Shown piece after piece: positions 3,366 to 17,549 of a DNA stretch of 39,944 nucleotides. Numbering within the stretch: the stretch's first letter is position 1; each line of letters begins with the position of its first letter. The position numbers and the translations under genes are program-made. Origin of the DNA: a virus; UHGV virus genome UHGV-0147509; one strand, given 5' to 3'. Under the pieces are notes generated by a model. It saw nothing but the letters and a program-made list of their open reading frames with translations. It did no database searches and was not told the origin of the DNA.

Positions 3366-3631
3366 AGGTGTCATTGCTTGATCGTTCTTTACAATTTTTG
3401 TCTGGCGCAATCATTGTAGTTTGCTTGCTCGTGATTTTTACATCGTTAATCAATATGTATCAATCAGGGGAACGATTGACAAAGACGATAGAGGAAAAGA
3501 AATCAGTCTCAAATTACGAGGTATCACATGCACATAACGATTTAGTAGAAAGCCTTGACCGTATTAACAAGAGGCTTGACGAGACAAATATGCTACTTAA
3601 GCAAATTCAAAATGAAGTGGAAAAACGTTGA
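3362..3631 (+). CDS. hypothetical membrane/coiled-coil protein inserted between arc and ant
   Basis: 89-aa ORF; ATG overlaps the arc stop (ATGA); purine-rich SD-like run upstream; N-terminal hydrophobic helix [15 protein letters not shown] followed by a charged coiled-coil-like region; AT-rich. Confidence 0.6.
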
Positions 3632-3661
3632 AGCCCCAACTGCGGGAACAGTCAGGGCTTC
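3630..3661 (-). terminator. stem-loop with U-run on the minus strand (candidate terminator of an antisense sar-like RNA)
   Basis: GAAGCCC at 3630-3636 pairs with GGGCTTC at 3655-3661; on the minus strand the stem is followed by AACGTTTTT; lies just upstream of the ant ribosome-binding site. Confidence 0.35.
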
Positions 3662-3693
3662 GGTATCAACAAATCGGATTAGGAAATATTGAC

Positions 3694-13580: not shown

Positions 13581-14549
13581 TTAGTAGGTTATTTTTGTTG
13601 CGAATACTTCGCCTTTTACGATGGCTGTTATGATATTTTTAGCAACATCTTCTGATGCACCAACCTTGATAAGGTCAGCAAGTATTTTGTTATTTACTTC
13701 TTTCCGGTGAGCTTTATCCTTTGCTCTACGCTCTTCTTCTTCCTTGATTCTTTTTTCTTCTGCTATTCTGGCTTGCTCTTTTGCTTCAGCCTCGCGCCGG
13801 ATTCGTTCAGCCTCCTCCTGTGCTTTTCGGCGTTCTGCTTCAATTGCCGCCTGCTTTTCTCTTTCAGCTCGTTCTGCTGCCTCTTTTGCTTCGCTCTGTG
13901 CTCGTTGCTCGGCTTCAATGCGTTCACGCTCTGCACGTTCCGCTGCGGCCTTAGCTTCTGCTTCTCGCCTTGCTGCTGCTTCAATTTCGGCTTTTGCCTT
14001 TGCTTCGGCTTCAGCTCTGGCTTTCTCTTCAGCTTCTTTTTTTAAGCGTTCTTCATGCTCTCGCTTTTCCTGCTCCGCTTTGAGTCTTGCATCTTCTCTT
14101 TGGCGGTCAAATTCGCGATCCATCAAAATCGCTATTTCATGGTCAGACTCAATTTGCCTTGCGAGAGCTTCAGCTGCTGCCTTAGCTTCTTCTTCGGCTT
14201 TAATACGCGCCTGCTCCTCCTCATAATCAGTAAGAGGCTGGCGCGCCTTGGCTTTCAATTCATCAAGGCGATCGCGCACTGTCTTGCGGTTGGCATCAAT
14301 TAGCTTTGGAATTTCCTTCAGTTCAGCAACAAGGTCTTTGCCAAGACCATCGAGATATGTTTTCGTCTGCGCAACTTTATACGCCAGAGAAGCGATCTCC
14401 TTTCTGCCCTTTGCCGTTGTGATATCAGGCACAAAGGACATAACTTCACGTTCAACCTTTTGAAGGATTTCTTCAATCTGGTCGGCAGACTGAAATACAG
14501 TCATTGCATTTGCTTTTTCAATAACAACTAAATCTGTTACTTCACTCAT
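13581..14549 (-). CDS. hypothetical early protein with long Ala/Glu/Lys/Arg-rich charged repeat region
   Basis: 322-aa ORF with strong SD GGAGGA before the ATG at 14549; central ~170 aa is low-complexity AEAKAKAEIEAAARREAEAK-type repeat; globular N- and C-terminal ends. Confidence 0.65.
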   Translation of the reverse strand: MSEVTDLVVIEKANAMTVFQSADQIEEILQKVEREVMSFVPDITTAKGRKEIASLAYKVAQTKTYLDGLGKDLVAELKEIPKLIDANRKTVRDRLDELKAKARQPLTDYEEEQARIKAEEEAKAAAEALARQIESDHEIAILMDREFDRQREDARLKAEQEKREHEERLKKEAEEKARAEAEAKAKAEIEAAARREAEAKAAAERAERERIEAEQRAQSEAKEAAERAEREKQAAIEAERRKAQEEAERIRREAEAKEQARIAEEKRIKEEEERRAKDKAHRKEVNNKILADLIKVGASEDVAKNIITAIVKGEVFATKITY

Positions 14550-14560
14550 ATATCCTCCGT

Positions 14561-14589
14561 CAAAAAATTGCCCTCACATTAGAGGGCAA
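14561..14589 (-). terminator. intrinsic terminator on the minus strand (tL-like) immediately upstream of the 322-aa gene
   Basis: Perfect inverted repeat TTGCCCTC-ACATTA-GAGGGCAA at 14568-14589 with a U-run on the minus-strand side (plus-strand AAAAAA at 14562-14567). Confidence 0.55.
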
Positions 14590-14710
14590 AGAAGATTTCC
14601 AATAATCAGAACAAGTCGGCTCCTGTTTAGTTACGAGCGACATTGCTCCGTGTATTCACTCGTTGGAATGAATACACAGTGCAGTGTTTATTAGTATGCC
14701 TGTCTTTTAA

Positions 14711-15292
<582 letters not shown>

Positions 15293-15380
15293 GTGATATA
15301 GATTTACCTTTAATTTTCTGGCGTCCTCTGCATGTTATGCCGCGTTCGCCAGGCTTGCGGTAGTAAATTCGGTTATTTAT

Positions 15381-15412
15381 GTAATAAAAAACCCGCCTTA
15401 GCGGGTTATTAT
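15381..15412. terminator. bidirectional intrinsic terminator between convergent genes
   Basis: AACCCGC-CTTA-GCGGGTT hairpin flanked by A-run upstream and T-rich run downstream; sits between the stops of the plus gene (15292) and the minus gene (15409). Confidence 0.7.
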
Positions 15413-15852
15413 TTCTTTGGATTTAGCTTTTCCATGTTCTCTGCGATCGTACCTATTCTTGACCTTATTGTTGGAACATCAATTCCTCTCTGTATGTCTA
15501 CATTTAAAGACATAAGCTCTCTGCTCCATCCTGCGATCGCATCGTGAAATTGTCTTGCCCTGCTTGCTTGTCTACGTCTGCTGCTTTCAAGCTCTGTAAG
15601 CATTTGCTTTGCTTCGATCTGAGACTTGCCTTGCCCAACTCCCAATGCATCGATTGCACATTGCTTCATCTCTGCTTTTATCAAAGGGTGAAGATTTTCA
15701 GCGCCAATAAAAATTACCTCGTCTATGCTTTTAAAAAGCAGAAGGCAATCAGTAACAACTTTGGTTCTTTTATCATCACACCTTACCTCTACCGAAGGTA
15801 CGCCGCCATATTGCTTAACTCTCATTGCCGTGTAAACTGTAGCACTCTTCAA
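15409..15852 (-). CDS. hypothetical protein, first gene of the leftward PL operon (occupies the N/gene 24 position but is not N-like)
   Basis: 147-aa ORF with TTG start preceded by strong SD AGGAGG at about 5-6 nt spacing; no Arg-rich N-terminal motif. Confidence 0.55.
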   Translation of the reverse strand: MKSATVYTAMRVKQYGGVPSVEVRCDDKRTKVVTDCLLLFKSIDEVIFIGAENLHPLIKAEMKQCAIDALGVGQGKSQIEAKQMLTELESSRRRQASRARQFHDAIAGWSRELMSLNVDIQRGIDVPTIRSRIGTIAENMEKLNPKK

Positions 15853-16009
15853 ATCAGCCTCCTTTTTCTTTTTCTATATCAAAAAGCTGCTTTGCTTTTT
15901 GTGACTAAAAGCAAAAAAGCCTTCTCGCTAATGAGCAGCATTGCCGTTCATCCTGAACCCGCCGCGCTCCCGACGCATGGTTTAAAGACGCGCCGTTCGT
16001 CTATGGGCT

Positions 16010-16110
16010 TATGATGTACTTAAAGTTCATTAATGTAAAGTACCAATAGTACATTTTATGGATATAAAAAGCTCACTACATCATAAGTTAGTGAACTTTA
16101 AGGAAATTTA
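16010..16110 (-). promoter_or_regulatory. OL/PL operator-promoter region
   Basis: AT-rich region upstream of the first leftward gene carrying operator-like elements sharing the TGAAC/GTTCA half-site: ACTTAAAGTTCAT at 16018-16030 and GTGAACTTTAAGG at 16091-16103. Confidence 0.45.
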
Positions 16111-16113
16111 TTT

Positions 16114-16821
16114 TTATCCGAATCGCTTGTAATCGATTGACTGCCTAATGAGGACTTTGGCTAGAATGTGAAGTTGCTCTTCTTCACCTTCTTCTATGTA
16201 CCATCGATCATAAGCGGCATTGTCAGAGATGACGGCAAGCCTGTTCTTTTGCATTTGCAGGCGCTTAACGTGCATTGTTTTCCCGTATACAAACACATAA
16301 ATGCCATCGCCATCAAAACAGGTTATGGATACATCAACAAAGATCTCATCTCCCGGATTGATGGTTCCCTCCATGCTGTCACCGCGAACCGTGATGACTT
16401 TTACGCTTTCCTGTGGCCTTCCATTAAATAAAATTCTTGCCTGCTCGGTCGTATATTCAATTGCTCTTATCTTTTCTATAAATTCATTGGAAACCATGGT
16501 TCCTGGCCCGGCGCTCGCCTGAACATCCAATACATCAACACGATAATAATCATTTGATCTTGATAGATGATTTACCGTGATACCGTCATCATCAGCATAG
16601 CCATGCAGATATGCAGCAGTAGTTCCCAGCACCGAAGCCAGAGATTCCATCTTGTCTTTTCTTGGTATTGACTCCCCGTTGAACCATTTACTAATGGCTT
16701 TTGGTGTGACCTTAAGCCTGACAGCTAAATCAGCCTGCCTACCATGCAAAGGTAATCCCGCTTTATCACAGGCCAGCGCAAGCCTCTGCGAGAAAGTTTC
16801 ACGCTCTTTCTGTTGAACCAT
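16114..16821 (-). CDS. cI: CI-type prophage repressor (HTH plus LexA/S24-like C-terminal domain)
   Basis: Start at ATG 16821 (the ORF track extends upstream); HTH region LAVRLKVTPKAISKWFNGESIP and S24-type C-terminal domain with VRGDSMEG and KRL motifs; divergent from cro. Confidence 0.9.
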   Translation of the reverse strand: MVQQKERETFSQRLALACDKAGLPLHGRQADLAVRLKVTPKAISKWFNGESIPRKDKMESLASVLGTTAAYLHGYADDDGITVNHLSRSNDYYRVDVLDVQASAGPGTMVSNEFIEKIRAIEYTTEQARILFNGRPQESVKVITVRGDSMEGTINPGDEIFVDVSITCFDGDGIYVFVYGKTMHVKRLQMQKNRLAVISDNAAYDRWYIEEGEEEQLHILAKVLIRQSIDYKRFG

Positions 16822-16900: not shown

Positions 16901-17131
16901 ATGAACGAAGTTACGTTTGGAGAAGTTATCAAATCCGTTCGAGTTTCTGTTGTGGCTGATGTTTGTGGACTTACGCCAAAAGCCATCTATAAGTGGCTTG
17001 AGCGTGGTTCTCTGCCGCGTACCGAGTTCACTGGTGAAACCGAATATGCGGATAAGATCGCCAAGGCATCAGGCGGCAAGTACTCAGCAGCACAGATTCG
17101 CCGTATCGGTAAACAGCAGTTTGTTATGTAA
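16901..17131 (+). CDS. cro: Cro-like repressor
   Basis: 76-aa ORF with SD GGAGAG, divergent from cI directly downstream of OR; HTH-like segment VCGLTPKAIYKWLERGSLP. Confidence 0.75.
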   Translation: MNEVTFGEVIKSVRVSVVADVCGLTPKAIYKWLERGSLPRTEFTGETEYADKIAKASGGKYSAAQIRRIGKQQFVM

Positions 17132-17252
17132 TAAAAATGTACTTTTAGTACCGAACGGCCCGGTATACGGTCGGGTGCCCGGCGTGGTCAAGGATGACTG
17201 TCAATGGTGCACGATAAAAACCCAAATTATTTACCTATGGAGATTGTAAGAA

Positions 17253-17549
17253 ATGACACAAGCAAGCTACAGCAAGCCAACACAGCGAGAAATTGATCGC
17301 GCTGAAACTGATTTACTCATCAACCTGTCAACGCTTACCCAGCGCGGTCTGGCAAAGATGATTGGCTGTCATGAATCGAAGATAAGCAGAACGGACTGGA
17401 GATTTATTGCTTCGGTCTTGTGTGCTTTCGGAATGGCATCAGACATCAGTCCGATTAGCAGGGCTTTTAAGTATGCGCTTGATGAAATCACAAAGAAAAA
17501 ATCCCCGGCCGCCACCGAGGATTTTAAGCAAATTGATATGCAATTCTGA
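17253..17549 (+). CDS. cII: CII transcriptional activator
   Basis: C-terminus ...[19 protein letters not shown] resembles recalled lambda CII C-terminus (..KKRPAATERSEQIQMEF); position after cro. Confidence 0.8.

Follow-up and report, generated by a model that had tools for sequence, protein, structure and literature searches.

Among lambdoid phages, HK022 is the classic example of one that has no N protein. The put RNAs it encodes, of about 70 nt each (boundaries A3-C72, ending at about nt 74), fold co-transcriptionally into two stem-loops and bind the β′ zinc-binding domain (PMC9378689), and RNA polymerase with a bound put RNA resists both intrinsic and Rho-dependent terminators over at least 10 kb with no phage protein (PMC9378689; PMC8632103). 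O276, a lambda/HK022 hybrid in which only nun, cI, cro and cII derive from HK022, is viable (PMC6256539).

The window analyzed here, the whole 39,944-nt stretch of the UHGV virus genome UHGV-0147509, presents an apparent paradox: a lambdoid early operon that contains terminators but no N. The best explanation, to which we assign a probability of roughly 0.88, is that the prophage uses HK022-type put RNA antitermination, which needs no N, and that the first gene of its PL operon, encoding a 147-residue protein (p147), is an accessory gene in the slot of nun. No new mechanism is needed, since the textbook exception of HK022-type, RNA-only antitermination resolves the paradox. Judged by its sequence, the window is a P22-like prophage with an HK022 immunity region, in which putL and putR are exact HK022 copies. 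The mechanism is one already known: the prophage is P22-like and has the HK022 system, and an orphan early gene has taken the place of nun.

The HK022-type immunity region and its put elements

The immunity region and the two put elements comprise the following features:

17253-17549, plus strand: cII (Pfam Phage_CII, E 4e-33)
17152-17213, plus strand: putR antiterminator RNA, between cro and cII (coordinates from the HK75 annotation)
16901-17131, plus strand: cro, HK022 type
16114-16821, minus strand: cI repressor of the HK022 immunity type, with a LexA-like HTH plus an S24 peptidase (Pfam HTH_3 and Peptidase_S24)
16011-16075, minus strand: OL operators and PL promoter (promoter scan; positions via alignment to X16093 and the HK75 annotations)
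16034-16039, 16011-16016 and about 16004, minus strand: PL elements, namely -35 TTTACA, -10 CATCAT and +1, respectively
15931-16004, minus strand: putL antiterminator RNA, two stem-loops, with A3 at 16002 and C72 at 15933 in the cryo-EM numbering

The block from cI through cro to cII has about 99.5% nucleotide identity to HK022 and about 96% to HK75 (megablast against phage genomes); the limits of the cI coding sequence were transferred from the annotation of an identical prophage in E. coli strain 317. Positions 15872-16120, which take in the last part of cI, OL and PL as well as roughly 130 nt at the start of the PL transcript, differ from HK022 by a single mismatch. Within this segment, putL is 100% identical to both HK022 and HK75, and the putL annotated in HK75 maps, without differences, to approximately 15933-15995. 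The second copy, putR, follows cro in the PR operon and matches its HK022 counterpart with 100% identity. putL lies directly downstream of PL and upstream of both leftward terminators (15390-15407 and 14568-14589, described below). An earlier note on this DNA had proposed folding the PL leader and comparing it with HK022 putL; this comparison yielded the two stems and the complete identity reported here. The limits which that note had given for the leader, 15853-15960, proved too short, as the transcript starts at about 16004 and these limits bisect putL.

The minimum free energy (MFE) fold of putL contains two stems. For putL alone, the MFE z-score is not significant because the RNA is G+C-rich, and the relevant evidence is provided by identity and covariation. 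A pattern of 27 core positions of putL occurs once in the window, where 0 chance matches are expected; in its degenerate form, this pattern misses putR, which carries a one-base insertion. The Rfam search of the window returned no put element, a silence that is uninformative because Rfam has no put family. As a separate observation, the sole Rfam match in the window is the sar RNA at 3626-3692 (minus strand; 67.8 bits, E 4e-12), and the prophage carries a P22-type immI (ant/arc/mnt) region besides its HK022-type immC. The virion genes are P22-like and resemble those of phiv205-1, CUS-3 and Sf6.

Put leaders are common among viral genomes. The putL core was found in 76 IMG/VR contigs, whose 76-nt putL segments fall into 27 distinct versions that hardly differ in the core, and its distribution reaches Erwinia: in Erwinia phage phiEt88, about 70 nt of putL are nearly unchanged, whereas both flanks have diverged beyond recognition. 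Across 16 distinct variants, 97% of the cells at paired positions can pair, compared with 19-57% when the partners are slid. Compensatory changes occur at four pairs, located in the 5′ helix and in stem II, and include U-A/A-U swaps in the 5′ helix (A3-G7 with C15-U19), a helix revealed by the cryo-EM structure of HK022 put RNA (PMC9378689). These patterns of conservation and covariation indicate that put is a selected element across phages.

Because putL and putR are exact copies of RNA-only antiterminators and occupy the same positions as in HK022, we infer with high confidence that the same put mechanism operates in this prophage, where an N protein would be dispensable.

Terminators, the N remnant and the left arm

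Leftward of p147, four features are relevant to the fate of the PL transcript:

15390-15407, bidirectional: first PL intrinsic terminator, AACCCGC-N4-GCGGGTT plus a T-run, directly past the p147 stop codon
15285-15377, minus strand: dead 3′ remnant of a lambda-type N gene (translation, tblastn, PGAP pseudogene)
14789-15292, plus strand: convergent 167-aa gene between both terminators, phrog_1244 (no assigned function)
14568-14589, minus strand: second PL intrinsic terminator, with an 8-bp stem and T6, common to HK022 and HK75

The terminator scan describes the first of these terminators as a 7-bp stem with 5 G-C pairs, and HK75 carries an annotated terminator at the place homologous to the second. 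The genes cIII, kil, erf and abc2 lie beyond both, in agreement with the view expressed earlier that two leftward terminators precede kil, cIII and erf.

The search for an N gene was extended to the whole window by tblastn with Nun and three N types, and only a 30-residue C-terminal remnant of N was recovered. With HK446 N as the query, residues 78-107 matched at 15288-15377 on the minus strand (E 1.6e-13), and in the E. coli strain 317 prophage, which is 100% identical, PGAP labels this stretch “antitermination protein N, incomplete.” This remnant of ~30 codons has neither a start codon nor an Arg-rich motif and is situated beyond the first terminator. The earlier statement that no other candidate N open reading frame lies between cI and the leftward terminators therefore needs to be qualified: it stands with respect to a functional N, and it had overlooked a small, dead N fragment at 15285-15377.

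Mosaic mapping divides the region into an HK446-like part (14555-15362), the p147 module (15363-15871) and, from 15872 onward, HK022. The first of these blocks is shared with HK446 at 99% and holds both the N 3′ end and the convergent 167-aa gene, which PL transcription must cross in antisense. The N remnant is a scar left behind when recombination brought in the p147 module.

Two neighboring genes deserve a separate description. The 167-aa gene, whose product has a zinc-ribbon-like C-terminus rich in Cys, looks like a moron and is found in HK446 and HK620-type phages. The first gene past the second terminator (13581-14549, minus strand) encodes a 322-aa protein of phrog_1376, a family with no assigned function, with a very long, coiled-coil-like central region rich in Glu, Ala, Lys and Arg.

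The p147 gene and the third hairpin

Between putL and the first terminator, the following features were identified:

15881-15924 (approximate), minus strand: third hairpin, just 3′ of putL stem II (fold)
15858-15863, minus strand: Shine-Dalgarno sequence of p147, AGGAGG (direct reading)
15409-15852, minus strand: p147 gene, with a TTG start at 15850-15852, 147 aa, orphan family phrog_13686

Both the listing of open reading frames and direct reading give 147 codons on the minus strand, which agrees with the earlier description of the first PL gene as one of 147 aa with a TTG start and a strong AGGAGG Shine-Dalgarno sequence. That description also held the product to be unrelated to N and to lack an N-type Arg-rich motif, and our results are in line with both points. 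Searches of Pfam, NCBIfam and PADLOC with p147 identified no family; the sole PHROGs match was phrog_13686, a family without an assigned function; and a profile-profile comparison (hhalign) of p147 with the N/Nun alignment gave a probability of 0.07%, that is, no relation. The Arg-rich stretch of p147, SSRRRQASRARQ, is internal (residues 90-101), within a predicted long helix, and not N-terminal as in the N type. A sequence profile search of the PDB returned nothing, and Foldseek against the PDB and BFVD gave no match with E <0.001; dsRNA-binding-domain entries cluster among its matches, although at non-significant values (E 0.5-2) that are too weak to use. The profile and structure comparisons that had been proposed for this protein thus revealed neither N-family homology nor a significant fold match.

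The p147 family is small, with 15 clusters at 90% identity among 5.8 billion proteins and 4 representatives at 50% identity in a profile search of 1.8 billion representative proteins, which recovered its own family only. Its members are confined to (pro)phages of enterobacteria or Erwinia. A confident AlphaFold2 model built from the family alignment (pLDDT 84) predicts a four-stranded beta sheet (residues 5-49) followed by helices at 56-72, 76-121 and 126-142, and the protein ends in ...EKLNPKK. Values of dN are 0.06-0.34 with saturated dS, and dN/dS of about 0.04-0.1 where computable. The low dN/dS, the lack of frameshifts in full-length homologues and the preserved strong Shine-Dalgarno sequence show p147 to be a real gene under purifying selection.

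A non-ATG start (TTG or GTG) combined with a strong Shine-Dalgarno sequence occurs in 9 of the 12 sampled p147 genes (the window and homologues from L095-L120), a pattern that suggests deliberately limited or regulated translation. In addition, the sequence TGATATAGA at 15872-15880 (minus strand), at the exact end of the HK022 identity, resembles a weak extended -10 element, and it might be a minor promoter, a candidate one, for the first PL gene.

To place p147 in a wider context, an unbiased search of IMG/VR for p147 genes was performed, and it yielded 34 loci. An N gene ends directly upstream of p147 in 17 of them, with three N types represented, and putL is directly upstream in the remaining 17, one of which has a Nun-like gene in between (L054/L105). 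Annotated examples of the first arrangement are MG40 and Flyfo Tbat2_3, while Erwinia phage phiEt88 exemplifies the second. A G+C-rich hairpin followed by a T-run is found no more than 45 nt past the p147 stop codon in about 31 of the 34 loci, as it is in the window. The gene consequently always lies downstream of an early-left antitermination device, either N or putL, and upstream of the first PL terminator. It is found alongside N as well as Nun and so stands in for neither, and the idea that p147 substitutes for either protein was rejected on these grounds.

The unit formed by putL, the hairpin, p147 and the terminator (approximately 15352-16011) also exists, next to another repressor, in O111 STEC prophages and in Wanchaivirus PDP110P2. 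In E. coli SD134209 and other O111 STEC genomes (L009), the unit is 98.9% identical to the window and is joined to an XRE-type repressor, with an IS1203 insertion downstream.

The gene that comes first behind putL is hypervariable across the 76 putL contigs. Its slot is occupied by an HNH/AP2 endonuclease-like family in 18 loci, p147 in 15, Nun in 8, a 75-aa protein in 5, a zinc-finger-like protein in 5 and many singletons. Members of the commonest group are HNH_3/AP2 endonuclease-like proteins of about 177-196 aa (contigs L011-L086). This variety suggests that the post-putL slot, which swaps its cargo, is a cargo-exchange hotspot, perhaps driven by homing endonucleases; nun is just one of its many cargos. 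In contig L042, the first open reading frame after putL encodes 290 aa of unrelated sequence with a Nun-like arrest tail, ...AVNHAHRRDPRKKWS, and this protein may combine the Nun C-terminal module with a different targeting domain.

The inverted repeat to which the earlier note drew attention, TTGCTTTT...AAAAGCAA, forms an imperfect hairpin of 18 bp with a U-run behind it and is identical in HK022 and HK75. In GenBank X16093 (Oberto et al., 1989), it received the provisional label “put. nutL equivalent,” which predates the discovery of put. Of 46 distinct 62-nt segments located 3′ of putL, 42 fold significantly better than their dinucleotide shuffles (z < -2, median z -3.7), despite belonging to at least seven unrelated sequence families (L011-L086). 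In nearly all of the 76 collected put leaders, the structure of this third hairpin is conserved and its sequence is not.

We presume that the third hairpin (15881-15924) is probably an RNase III processing site. According to Sloan et al. (2007), RNase III reportedly cleaves just 3′ of putL and frees the put RNA without loss of antitermination. For the hairpin described here, the assignment represents a lead and not a result. The structural study of put cites Sloan et al. 2007 for the independence of antitermination from tethering (PMC9378689).

Competing explanations and comparison with known systems

According to the put-based reading, PL (+1 at about 16004) would transcribe putL first, and PR would transcribe putR after cro. 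By analogy with HK022, each put RNA would bind the β′ zinc-binding domain and travel with RNA polymerase, and the modified polymerase would pass the terminators at 15390-15407 and 14568-14589 to reach cIII, kil, erf and the integration genes. Cleavage at the third hairpin, if it is an RNase III site, would separate the put RNA from the mRNA. Because p147 lies upstream of the first PL terminator, it would be an immediate-early product, made from every PL transcript with or without antitermination.

Four other explanations were weighed against this reading. That p147 is a new protein antiterminator replacing N would fit its place as the first PL gene, where N normally sits, its conserved Arg-rich helical segment (residues 90-101) and the fact that it invariably comes after the antitermination device and before the first terminator; nevertheless, an N gene already precedes it in half of the 34 loci, the other half have putL, which needs no phage protein, and neither its lack of N/Nun homology nor the exact HK022 copies of putL and putR leave this idea with any but the slightest credibility. 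It is also highly improbable that the inverted repeat at 15881-15924 is itself a nut- or put-like antiterminator. The PL leader does form a stable hairpin there, one that carries the 1989 label and has a counterpart at this position in 42 of the 46 distinct put leaders, but the seven or more unrelated sequences found there differ from the nearly invariant putL that adjoins them, boxA/boxB-like conservation was not found, and cryo-EM and mutational data place the limit of put at about nt 74, upstream of the hairpin (PMC9378689). The earlier proposal of a nut- or put-like structure was therefore right about the presence of an RNA element in the PL leader and about the hairpin being real, and wrong in the hairpin it chose, as the antiterminator is putL, immediately upstream at 15931-16004. 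Very unlikely, too, is that the downstream terminators are weak and antitermination is unneeded. The interruption of the minus-strand T-run after the 15390-15407 hairpin (TTTTATT) speaks for this idea; against it, both terminators are canonical G+C-rich hairpins with T-runs, the second is shared by HK022 and HK75 and annotated as a terminator, a terminator is kept after p147 in most of its loci, and the put elements are under strong selection.

We consider it rather unlikely that p147 is a Nun-like superinfection-exclusion or defence protein expressed by the repressed prophage, even though it stands precisely where nun would be, behind a leader that otherwise equals that of HK022, and the hypervariability of this slot fits arms-race cargo. 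The ~120-nt HK022 segment just upstream of nun, where King et al. (2000) reportedly placed the constitutive P-Nun promoter, is absent here; only about 20 nt, the Shine-Dalgarno sequence included, separate the shared leader from the p147 start, and a simple promoter scan finds only PL on that strand. Furthermore, p147 occurs together with a Nun-like gene in L054/L105, and PADLOC gave no match.

Under the preferred, put-based reading, p147 is a portable accessory gene. Our best guess is that its immediate-early product targets the host, rival phages or defences as soon as infection or induction begins and is not part of the antitermination machinery. An immediate-early action on transcription elongation, termination or the leader RNA, for instance as a Nun-like arrest or exclusion factor against other phages or as a binder of the leader hairpin, is unlikely, although the fixed position of the gene, its conserved non-ATG start and its invariant Arg-rich helix would fit it. 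As a strongly selected orphan that is always first after the antitermination device, p147 is a reasonable candidate for a screen of early phage functions.

The comparison with lambda and P22 places the locus outside the N family. The problem is the same as in lambda N/nut, with early operons interrupted by terminators, and p147 homologues elsewhere directly follow N; here, only the 30-codon N remnant is present and antitermination is predicted to be RNA-only. The PL leader contains no nut site (boxA plus boxB), being the put leader of HK022, and p147 has neither the N-terminal Arg-rich motif nor the family homology that would place it with lambda N or P22 gp24. The third hairpin recalls the RNase III-sensitive hairpin of the lambda N leader, which is likewise a long imperfect hairpin between the antitermination site and the first ribosome-binding site. 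Compared with the RNase III site reported 3′ of HK022 putL, the sequences at this position differ completely between put lineages.

Relative to HK022 Nun, p147 holds the same slot, as the first gene after putL, yet shows no homology (tblastn, hhalign), lacks both the N-terminal Arg-rich motif and the C-terminal HxH...KKW tail, has no nun-proximal promoter region and stands beside a Nun-like gene in one locus. Relative to HK022 as a whole, p147 and its own terminator replace nun and the region upstream of nun, the left arm beyond the p147 module is HK446-like, and the virion genes are P22-like and not HK97-like. The two phages nevertheless share the same cI, cro, cII, OL/PL and second leftward terminator, are likewise without an N gene, and carry identical put elements in the same positions, with putL at +1 to +74 of the PL transcript and putR between cro and cII.
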